A DNA stretch of 63,726 nucleotides, from the IMG/VR virus record IMGVR_UViG_3300025598_000038, positions 1 through 63,726 of that record; one strand, written 5' to 3'. Shown here one piece after another: positions 1 to 30,604 of this stretch; positions within the stretch are counted from its first letter, which is position 1, and every line of letters begins with the position of its first letter. The notes under the pieces are model-generated. The model did not search any database. It saw nothing but the letters and a program-made list of their open reading frames with translations, and had not been told where the DNA came from. The translations under genes and the position numbers were made by a program. This DNA is from a virus (taxonomy: Duplodnaviria > Caudoviricetes).

Positions 1-127
1 GTCCCTGCAACGCTGATAGACCCAGAAGAGCCATTGACCTGAGCAACGTACGATGTAGGCGCCGCAGGCGTACTGCCTGAGATCAAGACAGAGCCGTTAC
101 TAACGCCTACGCTGACAAGGCCAGCGC
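1..127. repeat. 127-bp terminal direct repeat, identical to 63600-63726 (circular assembly overlap)
   Basis: Base-for-base identity of 1-127 with 63600-63726; the reading frame of the giant fibre ORF is continuous across the join. Confidence 0.95.
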
Positions 128-12401: not shown

Positions 12402-15400
12402 TTACCGCGCTTTTGGTTTTGTCAAGTGTGCGACCATACGGAGGGCATGGTCAACAAGACCTCCGCCCGCCTTCGGCATTAACTTATTTCGGGCGGCTGA
12501 CACGTCTTCTGGAGAAACGCCGTAGGCCTGTGCCTGCTGCGGCGTCATGTTCATTACCCCAGTAAGTGTTCGTGTGAACCTGTCGGCAGGGCGTGCTTGA
12601 CTATCATCTCGTACGCCCCCTCGATTTCCGCGTCCGTCACCTTGTCCGCTGACTGGCGCTTCTCCACCAGATAGTTGAGTTCCTTGTTCAGGAGCCCCAC
12701 TTGCGGATCGGACATCCGATTTACCGTCTCCCGGCCTAGAACCCGCACGGCTCTGTGCGAGATACTTTCGTAATGCGTCTTGTCGATCTTCATCTTTTCC
12801 ATCCCATTTCATAATGGACACAGAAGGCATTCCCATCGACTCGTCCCACCCGGTGGAACGCCAGTAATGCTTCAGGTCCTCAAGTTGTTGATCGGTAGAA
12901 TATTGTGGGTCAAACGGAATACGTCCTAACTCTTTAAAACCAAACTGCCTGTAAAACGATGGCAAAAAGCCATCCGGGTGTTTTTTAGATGGTACAGCAT
13001 ATGCGTCTAAGGCAGTAGCACCCTCTTTAATTGCTTTTAGCATGACCGAAGCGCCGCCAACCCCCTTGGCGCCCGGCTCATTGTTTACAACGCTGACCAA
13101 AGCGGTCTCATTAGGAGTCAATTCTGGGTGTTTAAACCCATATTCCTCCTCGTAATTTGTTCCGTGCTTCAGGCCAAAGTACACGTCGCCACTGGGTAAC
13201 TTAAACGCCCTGAACTTCTTCTTCTTGACCATGTCCTTGATTTCCTTCTCAGAATACTGAGTAAGGGTCGAGGAGGCTTCAGAGTTTTTTAGGGCTTTAG
13301 ACATCTCAGCAGGCGATACGCCGCCATGCCCAACGGGCGTTTCTGTATTAGTCCAACGGTCATGGGCGACATCAAGAGCCATACGGGCTGCTTGGGGGGA
13401 CTGCACGTCCATTGGATGACTAGGCAGGTTGTCGGCAATTGCCTGAGTAACCGTGGTTGTCGGCAAAGCAAGATCAAACCCGCGCAAAATTTGCGCCGTG
13501 TCTGCTGCAGGATTTGAAGACTTACCAGACGCTTTCTTTGCTGCTCGTTTTTGATCAAACCAGTCTTTCCACAAGGTCTCTGCAGCAAAAGGATGGTGGA
13601 ACTTGCCAACAATCCGACCGCGAATACCTAACGGATAGGACTCATGCGGAGTGAACCCTGACTTAACCAAATCGGCAACGCCCTTGTCTCCCTTTTCCAG
13701 TTCCAACAAGTACATCACGTCGCCACGGTTCAGACCCGAGAACCGAGGGTCTATCGTCTCTCTGGCAATTTTTTTGACGCTAGGAGCGCCTAATTTTTGC
13801 GCTCTTGCACTATGTAAAATTTTGGAAATCCGATCACGGCTTTCAAAGTTTAAAGAGTCAACGTAATTGTGAATATTTTGGTGTGCAAACCCCGGGAAGT
13901 CTTGCAAGACGCTAAGTTTCTTGTTCTTGGATTGCGCCCTGATCAGGGCATCAATTTGATCAAGGTTTTCTTTTGGAATGCGCTTGTCTCTAGCGTGAGC
14001 AGCCATTGTTCCAATCAAAGCACGGGCAAACGACGAATTAGATTCATGCGTGTTAGGCATCATCGCGGTGACAGCGGCATAGTCGGCATTCTTATTCAAT
14101 TTGAACGTGCCGCGTCCTTTACCTTTAATAGCCCACCCCATGCCGCCACGCTGATTCTCTTCAATCAATGGGAATCCCGGGCCGCCGCGCATAGCAACAG
14201 GCTTAGTTAACTGACTGGAATCAATTCCCGTGTAATCAGGCCCGGTCTTTAAAAGATCGGCCCGAATTGGAAAAATTCTTTTCCCAACGAGATCTTGCGG
14301 ATTGATCGTTGGCACTTCATCCCATGAAGAATAGATAGGTCGATCAACCTGCACTGACGACGCTTCATCTGCGGGGACAACTTTCTTTTTCTTAGGCGCT
14401 CCGCCACGCGCATATTTTTCTTCGCTCGAAAATGGAATGCCTGCGGCCCGCATAACATGTACAAGCGGATGATCAATCAAAGGATTGTCTTTGATCTTGC
14501 CGCCGGTAGCAGCGTGCTGCATGGCGTGAATGACGTCAGAATGCGTCGTCTGATCGTTGCCAACGGCGTCCCAGATGGTGTGATGTGCGAGGTGCTGATA
14601 GTAAGGGGCAAGACCTTCCGGCGTCGTGAGGTTCATCGCCCGCTGCCTTGCGGCAAGGCGTTCGACGGCCTCCGCGCCGCCAAGCCCGCTGCGCCGGGCG
14701 ATGTACGGTGCCGCCTGCTTTGACGGATTTCCGGTGTGAAGGACGATCTGCCTTGCGTCGAGCGTCGGCTGATCGCCTCGACCGAGCAGGGACGCAATGA
14801 ACCCCGCCTTGCTAGGGCCGACGCCGCGCACGCCTTGAATAAAGTCGCGCCATTCGGATGGGCTGCTTGTCCCCTGCTGTGCCTGAGCGACCAGTCGAGA
14901 CACGTCGCCCTCACGGCCCGGCAAGTTTTTCGCCGCCCACTGCAGCGCGTCTGGGATGTCCGTCGTGTGGCGGCCAAACGGCGCCATGATCTGCACCGCG
15001 TTGCTGATCGAATGGGGGTCGATAATGCCGCGCTCCGCGTGCTGCAGGTAGCGCTGACCCATCGGCGTGTGCAGCCACTCGCCAAACGCGCCTTCTGGGC
15101 GAACCTTGGGCTCGTTGTGGTTGGGCAACGCCAGTCCGGCGGCGCGAACCTTGTCAGAATCGACGGCGCCGCGCTGAATGCTAGCGCGGGTGATCGTGTA
15201 CGCCTTGATCAGGTCACGCGGCGTGAGGCCTACAGTGCCCGCCTTGTTTGCCGTGTCGTCCATAAAGCGACCAAAGGTTGCGACATGCGACGGGATTTCT
15301 TTTGTGTCGCCCAACTGCGCCTGCACGTCCTTAAGCGGACGCCACTTCCAGTCCTCAATGGCGCTCGTCTTTGGGTCCTTATAGCCGCCGCGCTTCATGC

Positions 15401-18400
15401 CTTCGGCCACCATCACCGCCCGCCGAATCGCCTTCTGCGGGTCTACGACGCCGCCCGTGGCTTTGGCGATGATGGCTCCGCCGTTTGCTTTTTCTGGCGC
15501 ATACTTTTTATGAAACGCTTCGTTTTCTTCTTTTGTTAAAAAATCAGGAAGCGTCTCGCCGTTCTCGCGCATCTTTTCGAGTATTGGCTTGTACAGTTTT
15601 AAACTAGGCCAATGACGCGCATCGATCAAATCGGCGTTATGAAGATCTGAAACGTCTCCCCATTTACCTGACTTCACGAAATCCTGAACGTAAGGCATGT
15701 AGCGGGCTACAGGCTTGCCATTGGCCTTCCCCTTAATTTGAGCAATGTCGTCAGGACTAGGGTTGCCTTCATCGTCCACAACGCCCAATGAATGAAGTTC
15801 ACTCATCCTTTCGTTTTCATCAGTCCCCAGTTCGTCGTGACGTTTGTTGAATTCGTCAAAGTCAAAATTGCTTTTAGGATGAGTTTCAACCGTCACATGA
15901 GGCTCACCTGTCTTCTTGTTGCGAAGACTAAAGATGCGAGAATGCCCGCCTGTAACATTGCTTGAATATCCACCGACGCAATGCCCCATGACATTGCCTT
16001 CGTAACTAAGCGCTTCTCTAAGGTCAGGGTCTTTCGCTTCTTGTCCGGGCGAAACCATGACATCTTCTTGTCCGCCATAGCGCAATGGGAATTGTTTGAT
16101 CTCTTTAATAAGCGGATCAAAGTCGCCGTTTTTGTTTTTTTCTCTTAACTGATCGTTAAACGTGTCGATGTAGTTTTGCGCTTCTTCTTGCGTATCAAAT
16201 TTTGCGGGGAAAGCACCATGCACTAAATGCTTACCCTTTTCATACTTCGGAGGAATGGCGGGCGTTGCGTTAGGCGAAGTCTTTAATTCATACCAAGCGT
16301 AGTGCGTGCCCGGATAGTCCTTGTGCAAGTACGTCGCAGGGTTGAATGCTTTTTTCCTGCTTGCATCCTCTCGATTCTTTTTGCGCCACTCGTTGATGTT
16401 GTGGACGTGCTCAACCGCTTGCGGCACGGACATGCGAGCCAACGACTCGTGGCGCAATTTGAAGTTATCAGGAAGATCGGACTCAGGATTGACGGCGTTA
16501 TGCAGTTCGTCAATAAGGTGATCAAATCCCAACAAACCATGATCTATAGATCCAGATTCTAAATCGGACGTTGCTCCGTAAATTTTTTCAGAAGGATCTA
16601 CTTTTTTCAGCCAAGGATGTTTTTCGCCAAAATTTTCGTAATCCGTCCAAAGCGGCATGTTTGAATAGCCAGAAGGCTTTAAAAGTTCTTCGGCCCTGAA
16701 AGATCTCCCTATGCTTTTGTCGGAAGCATTCTCCCACGCCTTGGCAAGATCTGACTTTCCTCGTGTCTCTGGATAACCCTCTCGCTTTCTGACCGTTTCG
16801 TAATGACGATCATAGTGTTGATTGTCAGGCGCGTAATGCAAAATTCCACGCTCTGCCAATGCACGCACGGGGTCACGCTCAGTGCCCATTTCGTTTTTGA
16901 CGTAGCGGGTCAATTGTTTGTTAATAAAATCGTTAACGGCTTTAGTTTGATTGGCTTTGTTAAGCGTGTCAGTCAGACCCTCCATACGCGCAGCGCGAGC
17001 GGCTTCTGGGTGATTACCAATATTGGCAATTCCACGCTCTGCGATTTCCTTGGCAACTTCTGGAGTTTCGTGCGTTCCGAGATAGGTGGGAATAGTTTCT
17101 TTTTTCAAAGGTTCCAATGAATTTTCAACACTACCACTCAGCCAGTTGCCCCCCGGCTCCTTCATGATCTGCGTGCCCTGCAACTTGGGTGGCGTAAAGT
17201 CGGGCTCTTTGGCGTCGCGGTCTACCGTTCCGCCTGTAGATTTTTCTGGCTTAAGCGCAAACGATGGAACTGGTTTGCCCATTTCCTCATACAACTTTCG
17301 CAATTTTTTGTTTTCAGCGCGATTCCTGACATGCTGCTCAGAAACAAAAGGCGCGTTTCTCATCTCATCAGTAATGTCCCTAGCCCTCATTCCATAAGGA
17401 AAAACATGCACAGGAATTTGCGTATGAGGACCATACAATTCGCTAATTGCTTTTGATCGATGCCGCCCTTCGTGTCCCTTAACGTCCCACTGTTTTTGAT
17501 CTTCATTCCAATCAGCATTTAAAAAAGGTTGCCCAAACGAACGACCTTTACGAAGATGATCTTTTAGAAAATCCAATGATTCCTGATCTGGGCTGTGAAG
17601 GGGGTATGCCATATCCAAAAATTCAGACACAGGCATGTGTCGAACCATGCCCATGTAATCAATATTTTTGTTATAAGGAACGGCTCCCGCACCTTCTTCA
17701 GGGTCAAATGACAGCGGGGGCAAATCGCGGTCTACTTCACCGCCTTCGGCTTTATGAATTTCAGGCTTTGACGGGTCAAAGTCTCCGTTGTTACCAATCG
17801 CGGACTTTAACTGATGCGGATGAAACGCAATGACCTCTTCTTCCTTCGCGGGGTCTTCGCCTAACGTGTACGGCAAATGGCCCGGACCCTTGTAATTAGG
17901 TCTCGTGCGGCTGCCGCCGTGGAAGATCCCGTCGTACCCGTCTGCAATCAGCGCATCACGAACGTGCTGATCAATCATCAGCGGGAATTGACTGTTATGC
18001 GGGTTATCGACGCCTGCGTAAGCCCTCGCCGCCCACTCAAGCATCTCAGGGCTGTCGAGCACCAAGGGATTTTTGATGTTAGCCCAGAGCGGCATGACAT
18101 GAGTTCCGGTCTTGTACTGCGGAATGCCATGTTCGTTTTTGCGCCCGCCTACGTTGTGCGCTGCGGGATAGTGATCTTTGTAAGGCGACATCCAGACGGC
18201 GGGGCCGCTTTGCCATTTCTTGGGGTCATCTCCGCCACCCGGGGCGAACGTATGAAAGTCTTTGGGCGTGGCGTGATACAGCATCTTGTGATCGCCGCTC
18301 TCGTCACGCACCTTGCTGTAGCGCAAAAAGTGCCCGAGATTGGAATCACGACGCATGTGCTCATCCCAGTCATCGACTTCACCGCCTTCGGCCTTTGTGA

Positions 18401-19040
18401 TGTCGGTTTCTTCAGAATTCTCATCGGAATCAGAATCAGAAAGAATTTGATGCGCCTGATCAAATGCCTTTTTCCAATTTTGAGGTCTTACATTGATCAT
18501 ATTTGCAGAATAGCCGCCATACCTGTCTTCAGGAGGATGATCGCTCATCCTGATGGTCGCTTGCTTCATCGTCTTAGGATGACTGGCTTTTAAATAAGTA
18601 CTGATGCTTCCAAGAGCCTTGGAATGATGAACGGTTACGCCATATCCATGATCAGAAAGTGCCTGATATAACTTTGCAGGGCCTTTCTTGCCCATAGAGT
18701 TTAATTTATCGACTTCTTGAGCGGTCCAAGCAGATTTAAAATCAGGATGTGCCTGTAATCTGCTTTTTAATTCATGTTCGTTAGTAGATACGCCGTGCTC
18801 GCGCTCTACATCTGCGGCAATCTTTTTAAATGAAGGATGAAGAAGGTTGTAACCAAGAAGCATTCTGTTCATTGGAACAGAAATAGGCGAAGACTCTTCT
18901 GCTTTAGGCACTCCGCCCTTGCTCATGCGGTCGGGATTGATCACATGAGGGTCGCGGATCTGCAGACCCGACGATGACGTGTCCTGCATGATGCCTTTGG
19001 CAGTCATCAGGGCCTTTTTAATGGCCTTCGGGTCAATCAT
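12402..19040 (-). CDS. Large polyvalent protein (2212 aa): ADP-ribosyltransferase-like, ParB/Srx-like, PcfJ-like, HhH glycosylase-like and GNAT-like domains
   Basis: YHAT...GPAVWMSP...ANIKNP...GYDG...EVIAF.P.QLKSAIGNNGDFDP (ART-like); GHEGRHR (ParB-like); EG.VMGHCVGGY..IFSLR..PHVTVE..QIKGKAN (PcfJ-like); GVGPSKAGF..PTLD (HhH); KGVGG..LDAY..LPSFYRQFGF.E (GNAT). Confidence 0.8.
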   Translation of the reverse strand: MIDPKAIKKALMTAKGIMQDTSSSGLQIRDPHVINPDRMSKGGVPKAEESSPISVPMNRMLLGYNLLHPSFKKIAADVEREHGVSTNEHELKSRLQAHPDFKSAWTAQEVDKLNSMGKKGPAKLYQALSDHGYGVTVHHSKALGSISTYLKASHPKTMKQATIRMSDHPPEDRYGGYSANMINVRPQNWKKAFDQAHQILSDSDSDENSEETDITKAEGGEVDDWDEHMRRDSNLGHFLRYSKVRDESGDHKMLYHATPKDFHTFAPGGGDDPKKWQSGPAVWMSPYKDHYPAAHNVGGRKNEHGIPQYKTGTHVMPLWANIKNPLVLDSPEMLEWAARAYAGVDNPHNSQFPLMIDQHVRDALIADGYDGIFHGGSRTRPNYKGPGHLPYTLGEDPAKEEEVIAFHPHQLKSAIGNNGDFDPSKPEIHKAEGGEVDRDLPPLSFDPEEGAGAVPYNKNIDYMGMVRHMPVSEFLDMAYPLHSPDQESLDFLKDHLRKGRSFGQPFLNADWNEDQKQWDVKGHEGRHRSKAISELYGPHTQIPVHVFPYGMRARDITDEMRNAPFVSEQHVRNRAENKKLRKLYEEMGKPVPSFALKPEKSTGGTVDRDAKEPDFTPPKLQGTQIMKEPGGNWLSGSVENSLEPLKKETIPTYLGTHETPEVAKEIAERGIANIGNHPEAARAARMEGLTDTLNKANQTKAVNDFINKQLTRYVKNEMGTERDPVRALAERGILHYAPDNQHYDRHYETVRKREGYPETRGKSDLAKAWENASDKSIGRSFRAEELLKPSGYSNMPLWTDYENFGEKHPWLKKVDPSEKIYGATSDLESGSIDHGLLGFDHLIDELHNAVNPESDLPDNFKLRHESLARMSVPQAVEHVHNINEWRKKNREDASRKKAFNPATYLHKDYPGTHYAWYELKTSPNATPAIPPKYEKGKHLVHGAFPAKFDTQEEAQNYIDTFNDQLREKNKNGDFDPLIKEIKQFPLRYGGQEDVMVSPGQEAKDPDLREALSYEGNVMGHCVGGYSSNVTGGHSRIFSLRNKKTGEPHVTVETHPKSNFDFDEFNKRHDELGTDENERMSELHSLGVVDDEGNPSPDDIAQIKGKANGKPVARYMPYVQDFVKSGKWGDVSDLHNADLIDARHWPSLKLYKPILEKMRENGETLPDFLTKEENEAFHKKYAPEKANGGAIIAKATGGVVDPQKAIRRAVMVAEGMKRGGYKDPKTSAIEDWKWRPLKDVQAQLGDTKEIPSHVATFGRFMDDTANKAGTVGLTPRDLIKAYTITRASIQRGAVDSDKVRAAGLALPNHNEPKVRPEGAFGEWLHTPMGQRYLQHAERGIIDPHSISNAVQIMAPFGRHTTDIPDALQWAAKNLPGREGDVSRLVAQAQQGTSSPSEWRDFIQGVRGVGPSKAGFIASLLGRGDQPTLDARQIVLHTGNPSKQAAPYIARRSGLGGAEAVERLAARQRAMNLTTPEGLAPYYQHLAHHTIWDAVGNDQTTHSDVIHAMQHAATGGKIKDNPLIDHPLVHVMRAAGIPFSSEEKYARGGAPKKKKVVPADEASSVQVDRPIYSSWDEVPTINPQDLVGKRIFPIRADLLKTGPDYTGIDSSQLTKPVAMRGGPGFPLIEENQRGGMGWAIKGKGRGTFKLNKNADYAAVTAMMPNTHESNSSFARALIGTMAAHARDKRIPKENLDQIDALIRAQSKNKKLSVLQDFPGFAHQNIHNYVDSLNFESRDRISKILHSARAQKLGAPSVKKIARETIDPRFSGLNRGDVMYLLELEKGDKGVADLVKSGFTPHESYPLGIRGRIVGKFHHPFAAETLWKDWFDQKRAAKKASGKSSNPAADTAQILRGFDLALPTTTVTQAIADNLPSHPMDVQSPQAARMALDVAHDRWTNTETPVGHGGVSPAEMSKALKNSEASSTLTQYSEKEIKDMVKKKKFRAFKLPSGDVYFGLKHGTNYEEEYGFKHPELTPNETALVSVVNNEPGAKGVGGASVMLKAIKEGATALDAYAVPSKKHPDGFLPSFYRQFGFKELGRIPFDPQYSTDQQLEDLKHYWRSTGWDESMGMPSVSIMKWDGKDEDRQDALRKYLAQSRAGSRPGDGKSDVRSASGAPEQGTQLSGGEAPVSGQGDGRGNRGGVRDDSQARPADRFTRTLTGVMNMTPQQAQAYGVSPEDVSAARNKLMPKAGGGLVDHALRMVAHLTKPKAR

Positions 19041-22246: not shown

Positions 22247-23875
22247 TCACCCCGGATACAGTGGCTCGCCACGGCCTGAGCCCCGTGGGTAAATAACCTG
22301 CGATTCGATCTCCGCAATCCGCTCCGACGAGCGCTGCAAGAGGCCGACGTCACGCATATGCCGCATCGCCTGCGACACGGTATCGACCAAGTCGTCGTGC
22401 TTACCGCGCGGAAACTGGCCCACCTGCGTGATCACCATATCAGCCCATTGGCGATCGGGCGCGTAGACCATCCCTTCGGCAAACAGGTGCTGAATCGAGT
22501 ACAGGCGCGATAACTTGTCTTGCGACTTCGGATCCGACAACTGGACGGTAAACCTCTCGTTACCGTACAGGCGCCGCATTTCCTGCGCCACCGAGATACC
22601 CGCCGCCTTGTTCTCGATCAGCAGTTTATCCACTTTCAGCGATCGGCAAGTGGACGCCACCTTCTCGACCAATTCGTGCAACTCGAGCCGGGCCTGCCAC
22701 GCCATCATCAGCATCACCTTCGGCGACCCTTCGGCGTAATTGCGATCAATGTACGACGGCCGCCCGTCAGGTCCCACAACCCTCGACGCCGTCGCCTTCG
22801 TCTCCTCCGTGAACACGCCCCAGATGGTCAACGCCGAATAGTCATTGCTGGTCTTCAGCGTGTAGGCTGTATCTAGAGACGCCAGAATGAAATCCATGGG
22901 CGGGAAGGCGGGGTCCTCCCACGTCTGCCACCAGTCGCGCTTGATGACGCCGCCGCCCGCAGGCTCCGGCCTCTGCTGCAACTGCCCGGCGGTGGCGAAG
23001 GGTCCCAACTGTTTCTCGAGGACCGTCAACTCCTCCTCGCCAAAGCGCTCCGGCCAGAGCAACTCCCCCGGCTCGCTGCGGGGGTCATTCCAGCCGATCT
23101 TGGTCATGAAGGCGCGCTCTGGCTCGTAGCGCATCGGCAGACACAAGTGGGTCCACTCGCCGACGTTCTTCTCCAAAATGTGACCCGTCAGGTCGTCCTC
23201 CGCCAGTCTCTGCTGAATCACCACGTACGCGCCCGTCTTCGGGTCATTCAGACGGGTGCTCATCGTGCCGTCCCACCAGTCAATCGTCGCCTGAATCGTC
23301 GCCTCAGAGAACGCCTCGTTGGCGGCGTTGGGGTCGTCGACCACGATGATCGAGCCACCTTCACCCGTCACCGCCGCGCCGATCGACGTGATCAGTCGCT
23401 CGCCGCCCTGATCGTTGCTGAAACGCGATTTGGTGTTCTGGTCGCTATTTAATATGAAGCGATCACCCCACAACTTCTGATACCACGGCGATTCGATCAA
23501 CCGGCGGCACTTCACCGAGTCCCTGAGCGACAACTGATTGGCGTACGACGCATGGAGAAACTGGACGCCCGGACCCGACGTGGGACCGCGATCACTCTGC
23601 GCCCACGTCCACGCAGGCAACGCCACCGACGTGATACTCGACTTACCCATGCGAGGCGGGATGTTGATGATCAGGCGCTTGATGTCACCGTCCACGACCG
23701 CCTGCAGGTGCTCCGCCACCGCCTCAATCGGCCACCCGTCCACCCACTTACTGGAATCCAAATACTTCCACGCATGGCGCAAAAACTCGTACAGGCTCTC
23801 CTCGCAGTCGGCCCTCTCCAAGTCGATGAGTTGAGCCGCAGGGTCGATAATGACGCCGCCGATCTTGATGGCCAT
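22247..23875 (-). CDS. terL: Terminase large subunit
   Basis: Walker A-like INIPPRMGKS, Walker B IIVVDD, coupling motif IQQR, nuclease SLDTAY...DYSA and FP.GKHDDLVD. Confidence 0.95.
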   Translation of the reverse strand: MAIKIGGVIIDPAAQLIDLERADCEESLYEFLRHAWKYLDSSKWVDGWPIEAVAEHLQAVVDGDIKRLIINIPPRMGKSSITSVALPAWTWAQSDRGPTSGPGVQFLHASYANQLSLRDSVKCRRLIESPWYQKLWGDRFILNSDQNTKSRFSNDQGGERLITSIGAAVTGEGGSIIVVDDPNAANEAFSEATIQATIDWWDGTMSTRLNDPKTGAYVVIQQRLAEDDLTGHILEKNVGEWTHLCLPMRYEPERAFMTKIGWNDPRSEPGELLWPERFGEEELTVLEKQLGPFATAGQLQQRPEPAGGGVIKRDWWQTWEDPAFPPMDFILASLDTAYTLKTSNDYSALTIWGVFTEETKATASRVVGPDGRPSYIDRNYAEGSPKVMLMMAWQARLELHELVEKVASTCRSLKVDKLLIENKAAGISVAQEMRRLYGNERFTVQLSDPKSQDKLSRLYSIQHLFAEGMVYAPDRQWADMVITQVGQFPRGKHDDLVDTVSQAMRHMRDVGLLQRSSERIAEIESQVIYPRGSGRGEPLYPG

Positions 23876-23997: not shown

Positions 23998-24194
23998 TTC
24001 TCCCCCCTCTCCCGGATTCGAGCCGCAAAGACCTCGCCGCCCTTAACCGCTGACTTTCGTTCACACGCTTTCGCACACGCCTCACGCTCCTCCAAAACCG
24101 CTTGACGAATTTGCACTTCAAACATGGCTTGCGCTTTCGCAATAATGTTTTCAGCCATCTCTGCGGTCATCGGCGGAATGTCATCCCTGTTCAT
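23994..24194 (-). CDS. Small protein, EREACA...IRxRG family (copy 1)
   Basis: MNRDDI...EEREACAKACERKSAVKGGEVFAARIRERGEK; paralogous to 24819..25025. Confidence 0.65.
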   Translation of the reverse strand: MNRDDIPPMTAEMAENIIAKAQAMFEVQIRQAVLEEREACAKACERKSAVKGGEVFAARIRERGEK

Positions 24195-24822
24195 TGTTCC
24201 CCCTTGCGCGGATGGCCTCACAACACTCCGTTTCTGTCACCACACGCAAAAACTGTGCTGTTTGAGCAGACCACGCCGCATCCCACGCCACATCCCACGC
24301 CGCAGCCAACGCCACATCCCACGCCGCACCACGCGCCGCATCCCACGCCGCATCAAACGCCGCAGACCACGCCGCAGACCACGCCGCACCACGCGCCGCA
24401 TCCCACGCCACATCCCACGCCGCAGCCAACGCCGCAGACCACGCCGCAGACCACGCCACATCACGCGCCGCATCACGCACCGCAGACCACGCCGCATCAC
24501 GCGCCGCATCCAATTCATTTTTTGTCGCTGCGCCCAAAGCAAAACGCTCTGCGACATTGATTGCGTCATGGCTTCGTTGATTGGTCATCAGATGCTGCAC
24601 TTGTCTTGCACACCAGACAGCAAACAACCGCCACTCGAGGTCATGCTCAGGCACCGTGCGACACGCCCACAAAGCGTCTTTTATGCCGTTTGATTCCACA
24701 ATGACGCTAAACGGTAGCGGCTCGTCATCGGCTTCTGTTTTGCCAAGATGCCGAAGAAGTTTTTTCCACCCTTCAACACACGGATCATGTTCGCGAATTC
24801 GATTCAATGTCGTGCAGATCAC
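24181..24822 (-). CDS. Ala/Trp tetrapeptide-repeat protein (AAWD/AAWS/AARD)
   Basis: Globular N-terminus (PCVEGWKKLL..GIKDALWA..RLFAVWCARQV) followed by 12-bp tandem repeats at ~24270-24510. Confidence 0.8.
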   Translation of the reverse strand: MICTTLNRIREHDPCVEGWKKLLRHLGKTEADDEPLPFSVIVESNGIKDALWACRTVPEHDLEWRLFAVWCARQVQHLMTNQRSHDAINVAERFALGAATKNELDAARDAAWSAVRDAARDVAWSAAWSAALAAAWDVAWDAARGAAWSAAWSAAFDAAWDAARGAAWDVALAAAWDVAWDAAWSAQTAQFLRVVTETECCEAIRARGNNEQG

Positions 24823-25025: not shown

Positions 25026-25161
25026 GGCTTTTCCTCCTCGCAGCGTTGAGTGACCGCCGAGACTCGAGCCGATTGACGAGCATCCAGATCAAGATCGTGA
25101 CAGCGATTCTGAAGACCACGATGAAAGCGAGGGCGCAGAACGCCAGTTTTATGATGGTCAT
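25012..25161 (-). CDS. 49-aa single-pass membrane protein
   Basis: My translation MTIIKLAFCALAFIVVFRIAVTILIWMLVNRLESRRSLNAARRKSHDPR; coupled to a 20-aa ORF at 25158-25220. Confidence 0.45.
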   Translation of the reverse strand: MTIIKLAFCALAFIVVFRIAVTILIWMLVNRLESRRSLNAARRKSHDPR

Positions 25162-25265
25162 GCCGTCACCTTTGTAAACAAAACTTCACGCACCATCCGA
25201 ATAATGTCATCGCGGGTCATCTGAGTCTCTCCATCGGTTAGTCATACACGTCGGACAGTATCCGC

Positions 25266-25913
25266 CTATTCCTCGTCCTCGTCCACATACTGGGCATCCT
25301 CAGCCTTCGACTGGAGGTTCGCCGCCAACGCCGCCTTCATGATCTCCCTGAGATTCTCGCGTTGCTCAGGCGTCAACTTCCGTGAGTCAAACGTCTGGTT
25401 GGCCTGAACCTGTATCGGCTGACCGTCAGCGCCCGTCACCTCTAGCCGGTCCTTCTCGCGCCACTGGGCACGGGTCTTCAGGATAAAGATACTGGCGCTG
25501 ACCGCGTCCTTCCGGTCGCTCATCGCGATTTGGTACAAATTATTGGCCACGTTCGCCAACATCTCCGGGACGGCCGAGTCCAACTCGTGCTTGTAGTACT
25601 TATTGAGCGTGTTCTCGCTCAACCCCGTCAGGACCGAGATGCGCTCAATCGGATACCCTAAGAACGCGAACGATCGAATTTTGTGCCGCATAATCTCGTC
25701 CACCACGTGGGCCGGGATGCCTTGTGGCCTGTCGGGTGGGCTGATCAACTCGCGGATGGGGTTGGGCTTCGTCTTACTGTTACGAGTTTTTTTTGCTTTA
25801 AGGTCTTGGGGCGTGTCCCCGGCCTGCGCCCCGTCGCCAATGATCGCCGCCTCCTGTGGAGTTACCGGGGTCAATTTGTAAATCGGTTCCAAGTCTTTTC
25901 TGCTTTTTGCCAT
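25266..25913 (-). CDS. terS: Terminase small subunit
   Basis: HTH (GYPIERISVLTGLSENTLNKYY..EL), A.IFILKTRAQWRE and EVTGADGQPIQ motifs; upstream of terL. Confidence 0.85.
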   Translation of the reverse strand: MAKSRKDLEPIYKLTPVTPQEAAIIGDGAQAGDTPQDLKAKKTRNSKTKPNPIRELISPPDRPQGIPAHVVDEIMRHKIRSFAFLGYPIERISVLTGLSENTLNKYYKHELDSAVPEMLANVANNLYQIAMSDRKDAVSASIFILKTRAQWREKDRLEVTGADGQPIQVQANQTFDSRKLTPEQRENLREIMKAALAANLQSKAEDAQYVDEDEE

Positions 25914-26004
25914 CGGTAGGCTCCATTAGGTCGGTCAATGTCGCATTTGACTCTACCCAAGCACTCTCCCACGCCGTCGTCCGTTGGGGAGAGTCTTTGG
26001 GTAC

Positions 26005-26041
26005 CCCCCCACCCTTTTATTTCGCGAAGGGGGGTGGGGGG
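26005..26041. repeat. G/C-tract inverted repeat upstream of terS (possible packaging/pac element)
   Basis: CCCCCCACCC (26005-26014) / GGGTGGGGGG (26032-26041) around an internal TTCGCGAA palindrome; further G-runs at 26118-26135. Confidence 0.4.
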
Positions 26042-26143
26042 TCTGTCTATAGGCGGATTCTGAGTATATGTAGTTGGCGGGCAGATCCACCACCCCACGC
26101 GCCTTTCGCCTAATACAGGGGGGGTCGGAGGGGGGTCAAGCGG

Positions 26144-26217
26144 TTATCCACAGGTTATCCACAGGATTTTCCGAGTTATCCACAGGATATTCACAGTTTC
26201 CTAACAGGATATTCACA
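26144..26217 (+). promoter_or_regulatory. DnaA-box array 1 (phased at ~11 bp)
   Basis: TTATCCACA at 26144, 26155, 26176; ATATTCACA at 26187, 26209; degenerate units at 26166, 26198. Confidence 0.85.
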
Positions 26218-26246
26218 GGCGCGCCCGAGATGCAGCGGGCCATCGC

Positions 26247-26429
26247 TCATAAGCCGTTGATTCCGTTAGCCTTATCGCGCGCGGACTTGAAGGCACGTGA
26301 CCGCTCGACGCACTGCACGCAGCGCCAGCAGCGCGCTCGCAGGTGTGGCTTGGTGCGGACGAGCAGCAGGTCGCCGACGCTCTTGCACGCCGCGCACCAG
26401 CCGCGCCTGCTGGGCGTCGGGCCGTTCAT
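26247..26429 (-). CDS. Possible small zinc-finger protein inside the cis-element cluster
   Basis: MNGPTPSRRGWCAACK...CWRCVQC; GC-rich, coding-like segment between the two DnaA arrays. Confidence 0.4.
   Translation of the reverse strand: MNGPTPSRRGWCAACKSVGDLLLVRTKPHLRARCWRCVQCVERSRAFKSARDKANGINGL
26250..26262 (-). promoter_or_regulatory. IHF consensus site
   Basis: Minus strand AATCAACGGCTTA matches WATCAANNNNTTR. Confidence 0.65.
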
Positions 26430-26457
26430 GGGCCCGCGTCCCACCGCAGGCGTGCGT

Positions 26458-26485
26458 ACTTCGCATAATCGTTATTATGTTGCAT
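26458..26485 (+). promoter_or_regulatory. dif-like XerC/XerD recombination site
   Basis: ACTTCGCATAA-TCGTTA-TTATGTTGCAT: 11-6-11 layout versus E. coli dif GGTGCGCATAA-TGTATA-TTATGTTAAAT. Confidence 0.8.
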
Positions 26486-26496
26486 GCGTAAACTCG

Positions 26497-26509
26497 TAAG
26501 TGATTGATT
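26497..26509 (-). promoter_or_regulatory. IHF consensus site
   Basis: Minus strand AATCAATCACTTA matches WATCAANNNNTTR. Confidence 0.65.
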
Positions 26510-26535
26510 ACGCTGCAGATTATTGGTGGGAGAAG

Positions 26536-26567
26536 TTATCCACAGGTTATGCACACAACCATCCACA
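26536..26567 (+). promoter_or_regulatory. DnaA-box array 2
   Basis: TTATCCACA 26536, TTATGCACA 26547, CCATCCACA 26559; same orientation as array 1. Confidence 0.8.
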
Positions 26568-26591
26568 GGCTGGCGCGCATTCTCTCCCACT

Positions 26592-27164
26592 TCACCAGCG
26601 GATGTCAGCCGGGCTGTCGTCCTTGAACGGCTCGCTCGAGGGCGCGTCAGGATCGGCCAGCGGCGTGGCCTGCATGCTGGTCAAGATCGCGCCGAACCGC
26701 CGCTTGAGCGCTCGCAGGGGCGCGTCCTGCGCCTCGACAAGCGTGGCCAACTCCTCGACCGTCCATACCTCTAGAGCGCGGTCGCGCGCCCTCACGCGGG
26801 CCGCGTGCTCGCGCTCCTGCACGATCGCCAGCGTGCTGCCATCGCTCATGCGCGCCTCCCACACGCCCGGCAGCAGCACGCCGCACGCCTGCGCGGCCTT
26901 GTCGGCGGCAGCAAGCGCCTTCTCCATGCGGCCGACCTCCATCAGCAGCGTGGGCAGATCCGCCTCGCGTGACGCCCGCCACAGGCGCTCCTCCTGCGCG
27001 TCGTAGCGCTCCCTGACGTCAGGCGCGAGGCACAGGCGGGCTCGCCCTACGCCCCACGCGAGGTGCAGAGCGCGCTCCTTTGCCTCGATGCTGTCCAGCG
27101 CCGTGCGCCCTGCCTTGTACCCTGCCTGCGTGTGCGCCCACGGCGGTCCTACCACTGTCTTCAC
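26592..27164 (-). CDS. Conserved hypothetical phage protein
   Basis: 190 aa with WGVGR...ALAAADKAA..WE...VWTVEELA pattern; GC3-rich codons. Confidence 0.7.
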   Translation of the reverse strand: MKTVVGPPWAHTQAGYKAGRTALDSIEAKERALHLAWGVGRARLCLAPDVRERYDAQEERLWRASREADLPTLLMEVGRMEKALAAADKAAQACGVLLPGVWEARMSDGSTLAIVQEREHAARVRARDRALEVWTVEELATLVEAQDAPLRALKRRFGAILTSMQATPLADPDAPSSEPFKDDSPADIRW

Positions 27165-27224
27165 GGTTTGTGCTACCCATTGATTCGGTGAATTGAGCCT
27201 GCATCGGTCGATAGATCACGTGCA

Positions 27225-27240
27225 TGTTCCACGTGGAACA
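27225..27240. promoter_or_regulatory. parS centromere-like site
   Basis: Perfect 16-bp palindrome TGTTCCACGTGGAACA matching the chromosomal parS consensus TGTTNCACGTGNAACA; intergenic. Confidence 0.85.
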
Positions 27241-27298
27241 TTCCACAGTCAGCCATGCCGCGATGGTCGCAATGGCTGACAAGCAGAATCGCGCTAAC

Positions 27299-27586
27299 TT
27301 ATTGAATGCGTTCAACATTCTTCACATAAGCGCGCAAGAAAATGGGCGTGTTATTGCCAGCCCATGCGCCTGTCACGTTGAAGTCCATGAACTCGACCGC
27401 TTCCTCTTCCGACATTTGGTCACGATGCACCAAAATATCGACGCATTGGTCCCAGTCATAAATCGCGACGGCGCGATTGAACTGCGTGCCCATCCCGATC
27501 AGGGCCGCCTCGAACCCGTCGGCCAGCAGGACGTCCTCGAACATCTCCGCGACCTCATCGTCCTCGTAAACCACTTTTGTCGTCAC
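27299..27586 (-). CDS. Conserved acidic hypothetical phage protein
   Basis: ADGFEAALIG...YD...MSEEEAVEFMDFNV.GAW.G..TPIF family; GGAGG RBS. Confidence 0.8.
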   Translation of the reverse strand: MTTKVVYEDDEVAEMFEDVLLADGFEAALIGMGTQFNRAVAIYDWDQCVDILVHRDQMSEEEAVEFMDFNVTGAWAGNNTPIFLRAYVKNVERIQ

Positions 27587-27684
27587 CGCTCACCTCCATT
27601 GCCAACAAGCAACGCAATCAAAAACACGATCATCGCCCAGCAGTAATGCCCGTGGGCCAGCAGGACCGCGATCGCCAACACCAT
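27583..27684 (-). CDS. 33-aa hydrophobic mini-protein
   Basis: My translation MVLAIAVLLAHGHYCWAMIVFLIALLVGNGGER; fills the gap with a GTGA overlap. Confidence 0.4.
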   Translation of the reverse strand: MVLAIAVLLAHGHYCWAMIVFLIALLVGNGGER

Positions 27685-27686
27685 TG

Positions 27687-27989
27687 CTACAGCCATACTT
27701 TCTCCTCCATAGCCGCTCTAAACGCCTCAGAATCGGCCTGATGATGCTCTTCGAGCAACTTCCACTCCCGGTTGCGCTTGAACGACTGCGTCGAGCGGGA
27801 CCACGCCAAGTAAAAAACATTCTTGCGGGCAGGCGTCAGCAGCACCGCTTTGAGCGCGACCCATTCGGCCGTGGTCCACGCCGCGACCGTGCTCACGACC
27901 CACGGGCCATGCTCTGCCACGACCCGCTCATCCGGGCGCACCCGCACCCGGCGCCGTCCGGCCATCCTGAATTCACCTGTCTCCATCAC
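27687..27989 (-). CDS. Hypothetical protein
   Basis: 100 aa ORF with GGAGG RBS. Confidence 0.6.
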   Translation of the reverse strand: MMETGEFRMAGRRRVRVRPDERVVAEHGPWVVSTVAAWTTAEWVALKAVLLTPARKNVFYLAWSRSTQSFKRNREWKLLEEHHQADSEAFRAAMEEKVWL

Positions 27990-28086
27990 TCACCTCCAAC
28001 CTGCCTGCGTGCGGGGGCAGCGGAACTCGCGCAGCCCCGTGCGGAGCGATTCCGCGTTGCCCCGCGTCAATGCCCGCTTGCTGTTC

Positions 28087-28119
28087 AAAAAAAAAAACAG
28101 ACTGCAGATTCGCAGTCTG
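28087..28119 (-). terminator. Rho-independent terminator downstream of primase-helicase
   Basis: Minus strand CAGACTGC-GAATCT-GCAGTCTG followed by T11. Confidence 0.7.
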
Positions 28120-28174
28120 CAGGTGGTGGTTGCGGTAACGCACCCACCTTACCCCTCTACCGAGGGTAAGTGGT

Positions 28175-28354
28175 GTCTCCGCAAACTTTGCCGCAACGCA
28201 TACCGCATTGATTTCATTGGATTTTTCGACCCTGTCTCCGCGTCTCCGCAATACGTCTCCGCAAATGCTATACCGCAATGATTCTGTTGAAGTTTTTTGC
28301 GGAGACGCACTTTTTGCGGAGACGTCTCCGCATGCGTCTCCGCAATGTCTCCGC
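28175..28354. repeat. Iteron cluster (GTCTCCGC x9), probable phage replication origin
   Basis: Forward copies at 28175, 28234, 28242, 28255, 28324, 28336, 28347; reverse at 28299, 28316; 18-bp palindrome at 28315-28332; immediately downstream of the primase-helicase. Confidence 0.75.
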
Positions 28355-28358
28355 AACC

Positions 28359-30512
28359 TCACGACTCGTCTCCGGCGCGGTTTTCGCGCCAATCACGCAC
28401 CACCTGAACCGTGTTGTCGACGACCTTTAGGCCCTTCGCCTTGGTGTTTCTGTCCACCATCTCAAGCGCGATCTGGCCGCTGTGCAGCCAGTCCTCGAGC
28501 AGGGTCTGGGCCTTGTCGGCCGGGATGCCCATGGCGTGCATGTGCGTGATCGCGTACCGACCCTCGTTGCGACTGCGGGGATGTGGGCTCCACGGCTTCT
28601 TAGCCTCCCACGCCGCCTGCATGGCGCTCAGGACCTTCTGGACAGCCAACAGGTCCACCTCAGGCTCTGAGGCCGTCAGCGGGCTCCTGAAGGGCTCTAC
28701 GACAAGGGATTGCGTCCCTTTGAGATCGCCAAGGGCGATGGGGCGCAGGCTGTAGCCGATCGTCCAGCCGTCCGGGGCTGCCTTGATCTTGGCGGCCGTC
28801 AGCAGGCCCTCACTGGCGCCCGAGTCCTTGGTGACCGCCATGATGAAGTCTGCGGCACCGCTGAAGACGCTCGAGCCGCGCATGTTCTCGCCCGCCTTGC
28901 TCGAGTGGTGCACGCACAGGACCACGCAGCCGTAGGTCTGGCGCAGCAGGTCGAGGGCGCGCACCGTGACGTTGGCATCCTCCTGCTTATTCTCGTCGCC
29001 TGACATGGCGCGTGCGAGCGTATCGACGACGATGAGGGCTGGCGCGACGCTATGGCGGTCCACGACCGTCTGGACCGTCCTGAGCAGTTTCAGGACGTCG
29101 CCTTCGGCGTTCAGGTTGATCTGACTGTGCCCAAGGTAAAAAGGGGCGTCGTCTGCGCTCAGGTTATTCGCGATCTCGATCGCTCGAATGCGGTTCTTGA
29201 TGTCGCTGACGCCTTCACTGGAGAGATAGATCACGGGCGCCGGGCCTTCCGGCACGTGCAGGTTGCGGTCGAACCAGACCGCCTGCTTAAGCGCGATGGC
29301 CATGGACATGCCCATGGCGAGGAATGACTTGCCGGATCCCGGCGCCCCGGTGATGAATCCGACCGCCTGCGGTCCGATGATCATGCCCTCGACCAACCAC
29401 GTCGGGTCTGGAAGCGCTTTGATGCCGCGCACGTCGAGCAACTCGAACGTGTCAGGGGCGAAATCGCCCTGCTCTACGATGATCTCACCTGTCTCTGGAT
29501 CGATCCGAGGCGGGATGACAGGTTGTTCCTGCCCCGGTTGCTGTTTTGGGGAGGGTCTTGCTGCCTCCTGCGCTACCTTGTGGTCCCACTGGTTCAGCGC
29601 CGCGCGCCACTTCTGCTGCATCAGCGTATGCCCACGACCCTCGCGCTCGAGCAGGACGTGCTGCGGCGTGCCGGGCTCGTGGATGCGAGATTTGACGTTG
29701 CGCAGGTAGACCTCGTAGGTCTCCCGCATCAGGTTGTTGAGGGCTTCGGTCGAGGGCAAGAACGGGCACTCGCGGTGGAGGTCCAACATGCGGCCCCAAA
29801 CCAGCCGCGTCATGTAATCCTCGCGACCGTCGATGCGCGCGCCGAAGGCATCGAGTTCTTGGCCGACGCTGGGCGTTTTAACGGCCGCTGCGCCGTCGTG
29901 GTGTTGGGATGAGGGCTGAGGGCCGACCAGATGGTCGATCGCCGCACAGAGGGCCTCAGGCGCCTCCGGTATCTCTAGGGTCCACGGTTCGCGTCCTGCG
30001 TTCCACGCATACCGTCCGCCCGACTCGTGACGAGACGGGGGAACGACGGCGAAGCCGCCCTGTCCTCGAATGTCCACGCCGATTGGAGTCTTGGCGGTCG
30101 GTGGCGTCCACCCGGCAGGTGCCCTGAGAAAGACCTGCAAGCCGCCTCCGCCTGTCCGTTGAGTGGGCGCGATGATGGGGTCGTCACAAGTGACAGCCTG
30201 CCACCATTCGGCCGCTTCGGCGTAGCGCTGGATGTCGAGGTCCACGACAAACACGCCACTCGAGCAGGCGCCCGTGAGCACGCCGATGTTGTGGCCGTTG
30301 CGATGGCTGCCCGTGGGGCTGAACCAACGATCGAAAGTCTCTTGGGGGACGAGGGCGTTCTCGAACTCACGCCAACTGGACAGCATGGGTCGTTTCCAGT
30401 TGGGGCTGGACGCCGGATCATGGCCCGGCACAACCTGAAGGCCCAACGAACGAAGCATCTGTGCATGATCTGAGGTCGAGGCAAAATCCGGGTCAAAAGC
30501 AATTGACATCAT
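28359..30512 (-). CDS. Bifunctional primase-polymerase (Prim-Pol) fused to RepA-like/AAA_25 helicase
   Basis: NIGVLTG..VVDLD, TGGGG, DIRGQGGFAVVPPS.H (Prim-Pol); GAPGSGKS, LIVVDTLAR, VHHSSK, RGSS (RecA-family helicase). Confidence 0.9.
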   Translation of the reverse strand: MMSIAFDPDFASTSDHAQMLRSLGLQVVPGHDPASSPNWKRPMLSSWREFENALVPQETFDRWFSPTGSHRNGHNIGVLTGACSSGVFVVDLDIQRYAEAAEWWQAVTCDDPIIAPTQRTGGGGLQVFLRAPAGWTPPTAKTPIGVDIRGQGGFAVVPPSRHESGGRYAWNAGREPWTLEIPEAPEALCAAIDHLVGPQPSSQHHDGAAAVKTPSVGQELDAFGARIDGREDYMTRLVWGRMLDLHRECPFLPSTEALNNLMRETYEVYLRNVKSRIHEPGTPQHVLLEREGRGHTLMQQKWRAALNQWDHKVAQEAARPSPKQQPGQEQPVIPPRIDPETGEIIVEQGDFAPDTFELLDVRGIKALPDPTWLVEGMIIGPQAVGFITGAPGSGKSFLAMGMSMAIALKQAVWFDRNLHVPEGPAPVIYLSSEGVSDIKNRIRAIEIANNLSADDAPFYLGHSQINLNAEGDVLKLLRTVQTVVDRHSVAPALIVVDTLARAMSGDENKQEDANVTVRALDLLRQTYGCVVLCVHHSSKAGENMRGSSVFSGAADFIMAVTKDSGASEGLLTAAKIKAAPDGWTIGYSLRPIALGDLKGTQSLVVEPFRSPLTASEPEVDLLAVQKVLSAMQAAWEAKKPWSPHPRSRNEGRYAITHMHAMGIPADKAQTLLEDWLHSGQIALEMVDRNTKAKGLKVVDNTVQVVRDWRENRAGDES

Positions 30513-30604
30513 GGTACGCTCATGGGTGCATGGTCGATTAGGGGGCGGCAGACTTTGCGGGTCGCCGCCCCCACCTTATCCGCCTCTAGAGCGGCTTATG
30601 TCAA

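Follow-up and report, generated by a model that had tools for sequence, protein, structure and literature searches.

What use would a tailed phage have for the recognition sites of bacterial chromosome maintenance when it encodes none of the proteins that act on them? The question is raised by the virus record IMGVR_UViG_3300025598_000038 of IMG/VR (Duplodnaviria; Caudoviricetes), analysed here at its whole length of 63,726 bp and termed the window, in which two arrays of DnaA boxes, sites for IHF, a dif-like site and a parS palindrome are found in a 1.3-kb region between the replication genes and terS. A sequence-only reading had listed these sites, and all of them are present where it placed them: the two arrays are co-oriented, the parS palindrome is perfect, the dif-like site has the 11-6-11 layout, and the open reading frame (ORF) beside the region is indeed a gene for the terminase small subunit (Table 1). 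The sites are real, non-random and under selection. We tentatively read the region, with a confidence somewhat short of even, as a plasmid-like origin and maintenance region that would depend on host factors, much like the backbone of a low-copy plasmid.

Chromosomal-type sites and their controls

For all site counts, 300 dinucleotide-preserving shuffles of the genome served as the control. The exact DnaA box TTATCCACA occurs four times in the window (26144, 26155, 26176 and 26536), always on the plus strand, and all four copies fall within 26144–26544. The looser pattern TTATNCACA contributes a further box at 26547, placing four exact boxes and one TTATNCACA box inside 412 bp. With up to one mismatch allowed, 11 boxes were counted in the window, 5 of which belong to this region. 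The shuffles held on average 0.26 exact boxes and never more than 2, compared to the 4 observed. For TTATNCACA, the observed count of 5 (shuffle mean 1.1, maximum 5) was reached in 1/300 shuffles, not as a cluster, and it is therefore the clustering and the phasing that carry weight rather than the bare count. Array 1 is built of the three exact boxes at 26144, 26155 and 26176, two ATATTCACA units (26187, 26209) and two degenerate units. A repeat search yielded unit spacings of 11, 11, 10, 11, 11 and 11 bp, followed by 338 bp to the second array, which shares the orientation of the first and starts directly after the stop codon of p190. Tandem boxes with 2-bp spacers are the arrangement of oriC on which DnaA oligomers grow.

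The palindrome TGTTCCACGTGGAACA matches the parS consensus TGTTNCACGTGNAACA, is unique in the window and was matched in 0/300 shuffles. Class-level motif searches were centred on a metagenome-assembled genome (MAG) labelled Alphaproteobacteria, giving the class of G008, a choice that does not identify the host; the genome tallies for parS and for the dif arms include the unpublished genome G041. Within this class, the exact parS pattern was present in 78/101 bacterial genomes, compared to 1/101 for the reversed control, usually with 1–3 sites per genome and often as pairs about 2 kb apart. Both phage variants of the palindrome occur among these chromosomal sites, namely that of the window and the TGTTTCACGTGGAACA of its close relatives, the latter being the Bacillus subtilis parS consensus. 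An operator for a phage repressor was also considered for the palindrome and rejected: it is present as a single copy and its half-sites are clustered nowhere else, for example in an early control region, which argues against such a role.

Scans of IMG/VR returned at least 119 stretches for parS and at least 119 for a control palindrome of the same composition, totals that are not comparable with each other. Among the first 80 loci listed, 11 of the parS loci carried at least two sites, and 0/80 did so for the control palindrome. Viral contigs with multiple parS sites, from 2 to 5 or more copies, include L053, L064, L083, L084 and L085; these may represent either phage-plasmids that encode a ParB or chromosomal origin regions that were binned wrongly. 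The presence of parS in viral bins is thus not unique by itself. Its combination with a cluster of DnaA boxes was found at 1/119 listed parS loci (L145), which is unrelated to this phage.

The best match to a dif consensus agrees at 22/27 specified positions, the highest value in the shuffles being 20, and is laid out as XerC-type and XerD-type arms around a 6-bp centre. Exact DnaA boxes, parS and the dif-like score each lie beyond all 300 shuffles. A dif-arm pattern (9 + 6N + 5 letters, at most one mismatch) matched 141/201 bacterial genomes, many of them with the form NTCGCATAAT[AG]TATATTATG, and its reversed control matched roughly 79/201 by manual count of the table; the excess is thus real, but the pattern is loose. 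Five full bacterial sites have arms identical to those of the phage site at 16–17/22 positions, with right arms varying at the same positions. The contigs of 4 sequencing runs show no joint at the dif-like site; as contigs drop rare forms, this absence says nothing against integration.

The IHF pattern was observed 6 times in the window, with a shuffle mean of 1.0 and 1/300 shuffles reaching 6. Out of the three sites named by the sequence-only reading, the one at 26497 stands: it is a non-coding match to WATCAANNNNTTR and is kept in all three lineages. The other two are doubtful, as the match at 26250 lies inside the 3' end of zn65 and is not kept in relatives, and the near-match at 27295–27307 contains 1 mismatch and extends over the p95 stop codon.

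Conservation among relatives

Close relatives from other samples have a p190 that is 81% identical in L016/L017/L020 and L031 (terS 93%) and 70% identical in L032. These lineages keep both arrays in 11-bp register, the IHF site at 26497, the arms of the dif-like site, zn65 and the block of G-runs upstream of terS, as well as parS wherever the contig reaches it. The sites are co-located in 3/3 lineages covering the region, with drifting sequence in between. Array 1 stays in register with five units in L031 and six in L032, and array 2 is 91% and 78% identical, respectively. The IHF site is 85% identical in both, compared to only 27% (L031) and 0% (L032) for the adjoining 11 bp, and it is kept with changed N positions, reading AATCAACGACTTA in L031/L017 and AATCAATGAGTTA in L032. 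For the dif-like site, identities to L031 and L032 are 100% and 100% in the left arm, 50% and 33% in the centre, and 91% and 64% in the right arm, the 6-bp centres across the close lineages being TCGTTA, TAGCCA and CATCTA. L031 and L032 both carry the TGTTTCACGTGGAACA form of parS about 150 bp upstream of p190, changed only at the free position of the consensus, within gaps that are 31–66% identical. MAFFT misplaced the L032 parS, and the tabulated 44% identity is hence an alignment artefact; the motif scan finds the site.

Between parS and p190, L032 (2250–2380) contains four palindromes of the form T5-GCAGTGCA-A5, and L031 (1270–1400) contains an AT-rich insert with repeated AAATTTACC-like units, neither of which is present in the window; these repeats could be lineage-specific iterons or operators. 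The inverted repeat bracketing array 2 reads GTGGGACA / TGTCCCAC in L032, with one compensatory change.

Co-location in related phages, which the sequence-only reading had put forward as one of its checks, is observed for the close lineages and does not extend to the wider phage group, whose more distant members lack the clustered DnaA boxes and parS. A second clade of phages of about 36 kb shares only the primase (26–31% identical) and p190 (33%) with the window, has its own tyrosine integrase and an unrelated terL (no tblastn match at E ≤ 1e-3), and the fetched stretches of 16 of its loci contain no DnaA boxes and no parS. It does have an element related to the dif-like site, CCATCGCATAA / TGNNGA-like centre / TTATCGAAAAT, located between a terS-like gene and terL and, in the complete record G006, 11 kb from the tyrosine integrase. 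A search for repeats downstream of p190 in four distant relatives revealed no iteron arrays, the equivalent stretch of L007 being densely coding. Querying 185,579 species genomes with the primase returned only 2 MAG contigs, both from distant relatives. A distant carrier of primase, p190 and terL in the same order as here (L288/L289) corresponds to the 38-kb circular plasmid p1 of Caenibius sp. WL (NZ_CP081845.1), a complete phage-like genome with capsid, terminase and lysis genes, an integrase and HicAB and with none of the sites; it shows only that such elements are recoverable as circles from cultures.

Layout and gene content

The sites occupy the gaps between a replicase module (primase-helicase, p100, p95, p190) and the packaging genes (Table 1). 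In gene direction, i.e. on the minus strand, the primase-helicase is followed by two small ORFs, p95, a 134-bp gap with a hairpin and parS, and p190, and then by array 2, the IHF site, the dif-like site, zn65, array 1, the G-run block and terS. The distances from parS are 660 bp to the DnaA-box array, 740 bp to the dif-like site and 1.1 kb to the primase-helicase. The most AT-rich stretch of the region is 26460–26535, with 57–67% AT in a locus of 55–64% GC and a top 40-mer of 67.5% AT at 26472. The cumulative GC-skew of the genome reaches its minimum at about 28–29 kb, where gene orientation is constant, a weak pointer to a nearby origin.

Table 1 Features of the region between the replicase gene and terS (window coordinates; sites without a strand are left blank)
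Feature	Coordinates	Strand	Remarks
terS, terminase small subunit	25266..25913	-	phrog_309, E 4.1e-11; 93% identical in L016/L017; packaging genes start here, downstream of the region
G/C-run block containing nested inverted repeats	26004..26138		most conserved non-coding stretch; repeats I8, I19, I20
DnaA-box array 1	26144..26217	+	seven 11-bp units, head to tail
zn65, small CxxC...CxxC zinc-ribbon ORF	26247..26444	-	between both arrays; ~60-65 residues
dif-like 11-6-11 site	26458..26485		ACTTCGCATAA / TCGTTA / TTATGTTGCAT
IHF consensus site	26497..26509	-	AATCAATCACTTA on the minus strand
Inverted repeat around array 2	26526..26590		GTGGGAGA (26526-26533) / TCTCCCAC (26583-26590)
DnaA-box array 2	26536..26567	+	TTATCCACA (26536), TTATGCACA (26547), CCATCCACA (26559)
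p190, replication-module protein	26592..27164	-	homologues after the primase-helicase; acidic C-terminal tail
parS palindrome, 16 bp, perfect	27225..27240		TGTTCCACGTGGAACA; in the 134-bp gap between p95 and p190
p95, small phage protein	27299..27586	-	phrog_13182, E 2e-25; 58-64% identical in L031 and L032
Replicase: N-terminal Prim-Pol primase fused to AAA_25 (RepA/DnaB-like) helicase	28359..30512	-	Pfam Prim-Pol E 6.7e-24, AAA_25 E 2e-33; PHROG primase/helicase families

The phage encodes a primase-helicase, a UvrD-type helicase, a RuvC-like resolvase, a PD-(D/E)XK nuclease and small helix-turn-helix (HTH) proteins. Six-frame hidden Markov model (HMM) searches at E ≤ 1 detected no Phage_integrase, Resolvase, ParB_N, AAA_31, CbiA, DnaA C-terminal domain or DNA_pol_A in the window, the positive controls being detected in 10–14/14 reference genomes. 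The absence of integrase, ParA, ParB and DnaA noted earlier from the sequence is thereby confirmed, and with no ParB or ParA on the phage, host proteins would have to act on parS. The ORFs scanned against Pfam or PHROGs yielded no convincing polymerase; one tail-fibre ORF has a marginal 33-residue match to a PHROG labelled DNA polymerase. The sequence-only reading had also seen no Rep initiator, a point that does not hold, as the Prim-Pol + AAA_25 primase-helicase, the UvrD-type helicase and p190 adjoin the sites. From its proposal of a minichromosome run entirely on host proteins, the lack of partition, recombinase and DnaA genes remains, whereas the phage carrying its own replicase means that it is not run entirely by the host. 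By the features used to recognise phage-plasmids, structural genes and a replicase are present and partition genes are absent.

Homologues of p190 follow the primase-helicase in all clades (including L005, L007, L012, L018 and L019). The AlphaFold model of p190 has a pLDDT (predicted local distance difference test) of 78 and no match in the PDB at E ≤ 0.001; in Atlas, p190 falls only with viral hypothetical clusters (0.88–0.89), and tblastn against plasmids gave no match. In the first distant clade, p190 ends in an acidic DDxPF/W tail resembling the C-terminal tip of bacterial SSB, which hints that p190 may dock onto SSB-binding host proteins. NCBIfam yielded zero matches for the primase, p190, zn65 and p95.

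The second small protein of the region, zn65, obtained zero matches in Pfam and PHROG as well. Its alignment with L017 contains gaps of 6, 6 and 15 nt, all multiples of three, and its tblastn identity is 51–58% in L016, L017, L031 and L032. The size of zn65 and its position just upstream of the packaging genes recall small late-gene activators. The neighbouring G-run block is 99% identical to L031 and 81% to L032, with flanks at 37–62%, and may be a cos/pac packaging signal or a leader element or switch for terS. Its inverted repeats 26005–14/26032–41 and 26031–45/26082–96 are mutually exclusive. A rho-independent terminator at the G-run hairpins was rejected, as there is no T-run, and an Rfam scan of 25500–27700 found no family above threshold, two sub-threshold microRNA matches being taken as chance. 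The 9-mer CTCTCCCAC is not enriched genome-wide (8 matches at up to one mismatch, 11.85 expected); 3/8 of these near-matches lie inside 630 bp of this region, and the sole two exact copies in the genome are at 25964 and 26582. Two copies of the GGGNAGGG motif, resembling FtsK orienting polar sequences (KOPS), are present in the window and are uninformative.

The source record represents a complete virus (CheckV completeness 100%) and is assigned to the class with direct terminal repeats, which here measure exactly 127 bp (window 1–127 and 63600–63726). Since 127 bp is a common assembler k-mer overlap size, we infer that the repeat is an assembler overlap, i.e. that the assembly is circular, and not a physical end. 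The junction of the window ends is spanned by a large tail-fibre-like ORF. Genes for terL (22247–23875), terS, portal, head, tail-fibre and DNA-ejection proteins are those of a tailed phage, and nearly all genes of the window are on the minus strand. Judged by terL, the named relatives closest to the phage are a genome of an uncultured member of the Caudoviricetes (48% identity) and the Roseobacter phages CRP-901 and CRP-902 (43%). A blastn search of 25200–30600 against phage and plasmid collections returned zero nucleotide-level matches, and a tRNA scan of the window returned zero. The stretch is present in 24 freshwater metagenome runs of 2017, 13 of which are possible sources and among which no RNA run is listed. 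In all 24 it is available as contigs, a form that does not show molecule ends, and a 22,667-nt contig from an independent run spans 25143–28500 with zero differences.

Elsewhere in the genome, 24100–25220 is a hot spot of strain variation, where nearly all of the differences and of the contig breaks seen in four runs are located; the ORF 24181–24822 (phrog_18326) is built of short AAW/DAA-type repeats. At 12402–19040, the window encodes a polyvalent protein of 2,212 residues that combines an ADP-ribosyltransferase domain (ART-PolyVal) with a PcfJ-like one and probably enters the cell by injection to counteract host defences.

A plasmid-like origin and its alternatives

If the region acts as a plasmid-like origin, host DnaA would oligomerise on the two co-oriented arrays (7 + 3 units), with boxes one helical turn apart, host IHF would bend the DNA at 26497, and the AT-rich stretch of about 75 bp, which contains the dif-like site, would open. 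The phage Prim-Pol/AAA_25 primase-helicase, together with p190, would then work with the host polymerase. The single parS would load ParB of the host and so link the phage DNA to the ParABS/SMC machinery, by which it would be positioned or segregated as an extrachromosomal element, and the dif-like site would resolve multimers or join redundant ends via Xer. Every binding event and every function in this scheme is what we infer from the sequence. The scheme draws on the placement of the sites between replicase and packaging genes, the phased boxes on one strand, the conserved IHF site next to the AT-rich stretch, the GC-skew minimum nearby, the missing cognate proteins and polymerase, the conservation of the sites amid drifting flanks, the agreement of parS and the dif-like arms with bacterial motifs, and the palindrome being single. 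For the dif-like site, an Xer-type core serving multimer resolution or the circularisation of a terminally redundant genome would be the simplest explanation. Its centre varies freely between lineages, as is more in keeping with exchange between sister copies than with exchange involving a host dif. Alternatively, the site could form the palindromic core of the origin itself. A far more complete version is unlikely in our estimate, namely that this tailed phage, devoid of integrase and partition genes, persists as a minichromosome with a DnaA/IHF-fired origin, XerCD resolution or end joining and ParABS segregation, supplies, of the proteins tested, only its primase-helicase and helicase genes, and perturbs the host cell cycle through its sites upon amplification.

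Several findings weigh against a host-dependent origin. Three complete relatives with a primase 40–46% identical to that of the window have 0–1 DnaA boxes, no parS and no dif-like site, and are likewise without integrase; as they share the replicase, DnaA and ParB cannot be essential to this replicon type. With the arrays and parS missing from both distant groups, these sites are a recent addition in the lineage of the window, and the dif-like element, being also present in the second clade, is older and travels with the replication module. That the element is kept in a clade bearing its own integrase allows for a phage-specific role. Its conservation is moreover lopsided, with an invariant XerC-like and a variable XerD-like arm, whereas natural plasmid Xer sites show the opposite, with an XerD arm conserved as well as or better than the XerC arm. 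The AT-rich stretch is short, and repeated unwinding elements of the 13-mer type are missing from it. The window contains no clear lysogeny module, only small HTH proteins and no CI-like repressor, and no integrated or plasmid copy of this phage was found in isolate genomes. Finally, the specificities of the host DnaA, ParB and Xer proteins are assumed.

Several of these points would suit a decoy, in which the roughly ten DnaA boxes plus parS (and the Xer site) on each phage copy titrate DnaA, ParB and possibly XerCD, stopping initiation, segregation and division of the host. The datA locus titrates DnaA, and the many high-affinity boxes with an IHF site match the arrangement of datA and DARS2; the phage lacks the cognate proteins and any obvious lysogeny module, and its relatives replicate without the sites, as expected of an accessory takeover device. 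One parS and one dif-like site per genome would be weak sinks, however, the strict 11-bp phasing in one orientation next to an IHF site and an AT-rich stretch exceeds what titration needs, and an Xer site risks recombination with the host chromosome for no clear decoy value. We regard the decoy as rather improbable, noting that it is not exclusive, as titration would also be a side effect of an origin. A place where the early and middle replication genes end and the late packaging genes begin, with all genes on the minus strand and the sites in the gaps, would also be apt for an early-to-late switch: DnaA, IHF and spreading ParB would block read-through into zn65–terS until phage copies outnumber the host proteins, and the dif-like element would be a late promoter or operator. 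This agrees with a conserved -10-like hexamer in the element (CATAAT, replaced by GATAAT in the second clade) that precedes the start of zn65 by about 45 nt, with the second-clade element lying just after a terminator-like hairpin and before terL, and with a centre that varies freely in the manner of a spacer. Yet the dif-like site was not picked up as a sigma-70-type promoter in a promoter scan, whose sole match in 25700–27700 is at 26608–26579 on the minus strand and whose match rate does not exceed that of shuffles. A -35 element is absent, and a switch leaves the exact host DnaA and ParB sites and the asymmetric dif-type arms unexplained. It has, in our view, only a small chance of being correct, one similar to that of the complete minichromosome.

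The conserved IHF site and the nearly invariant G-run block directly upstream of terS also call to mind a cos/pac region, lambda cosB having an IHF site, with the dif-like palindrome as the terminase cutting site; the second-clade element likewise adjoins terL. We hold this to be very unlikely, given that exact DnaA boxes and parS would go unexplained, that the second clade keeps the element despite an unrelated terL, and that cohesive ends are not usually AT-rich with a variable centre. Slightly less probable still is integration at the host dif via XerCD, as practised by filamentous, microvirus and double-jelly-roll elements. The arms do match bacterial dif-type sites and no integrase or resolvase was found, and in the literature searched Xer-exploiting elements are found only among non-tailed phages, which would make the case new for a tailed phage; but close lineages do not share one centre, none of their centres is of the TATATA type seen in bacterial sites, the primase query of species genomes brought up no prophage copy, only the two MAG contigs, and the second clade keeps the site alongside its own integrase. 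The probability that the locus merely combines chance motifs, or is an assembly chimera with host DNA, is close to nil. By our own arithmetic, 64 kb of sequence should contain about one perfect 16-bp palindrome of some kind, and the TTATNCACA count was equalled by one shuffle, but neither accounts for clustering, phasing and single-strand orientation, for a parS absent from all shuffles, or for conservation in three lineages from other samples. An insertion of host DNA, which the sequence-only reading had named as a possible source of error, is contradicted, as phage genes with conserved synteny in relatives lie in between the sites and contigs from independent runs bridge the region.

Returning to the plasmid-like origin, the closest parallel is oriR of P1, a tailed phage living as a plasmid, which has sets of DnaA boxes at both origin ends and combines an element-encoded replication protein with the host replisome. 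The window shares with it the sets of DnaA boxes, an element-encoded replication protein and the tailed-phage carrier. P1 itself supplies an initiator with iterons, a ParA/ParB/parS system and Cre/lox, whereas no iterons for a phage initiator are evident in the window, its arrays are long, tandem and in 11-bp register, and the sites that it has for partition and resolution are host-chromosome ones, for which the phage encodes no proteins. In P1, loxP lies near pac, and site-specific recombination there circularises terminally redundant DNA; a recombination-type site near packaging genes is likewise seen in two clades here, except that the recombinase would be host XerCD. Clusters of consensus DnaA boxes with 2-bp spacers and an IHF site are also features of oriC, datA and DARS2. 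On the phage, in contrast, the arrays point the same way instead of facing each other, a protein-coding gene lies between them, and there is no recognisable repeated unwinding element.

The 16-bp phage parS is identical in sequence to chromosomal sites of the ParB (Spo0J) type, as counted above for 78/101 genomes, and differs from them in being virus-borne, in single copy, close to a DnaA array and a dif-like site, and in a genome encoding neither ParB nor ParA. In an experiment in Bacillus subtilis, a single parS reportedly stabilises a plasmid in a host with ParAB. With Xer sites, i.e. dif, cer/psi and the attachment sites of Xer-exploiting elements, the dif-like site shares the 11-6-11 layout, a CGCATAA-type left and a TTATG-type right arm, the residence on an element without recombinase, and a centre that differs between lineages, as it does among plasmid sites. 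It departs from them in its tailed-phage carrier and variable right arm, in having no accessory sequences or integrated copies known, and, compared to Xer-exploiting elements, in having a related site in integrase-bearing phages. In the literature searched, no tailed phage was found described as having a chromosomal parS but lacking ParB, or as using Xer, the Xer-exploiting cases there being filamentous, microviral and double-jelly-roll.

If host ParB, DnaA and XerCD truly act on these sites, this would be a virus carrying the cis-sites of all three steps of chromosome maintenance and none of the proteins, and thus a compact system for studying the minimal equipment with which a replicon can ride the cell-cycle machinery of its host. 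It would allow testing whether chromosomal ParABS partitions foreign DNA in nature, and whether phages use such sites for the timing of late genes or for freezing the host cycle. Xer exploitation would be extended to tailed phages, and the locus would flag a temperate or carrier-state behaviour that is missed by gene-based predictors relying on integrase or ParAB.

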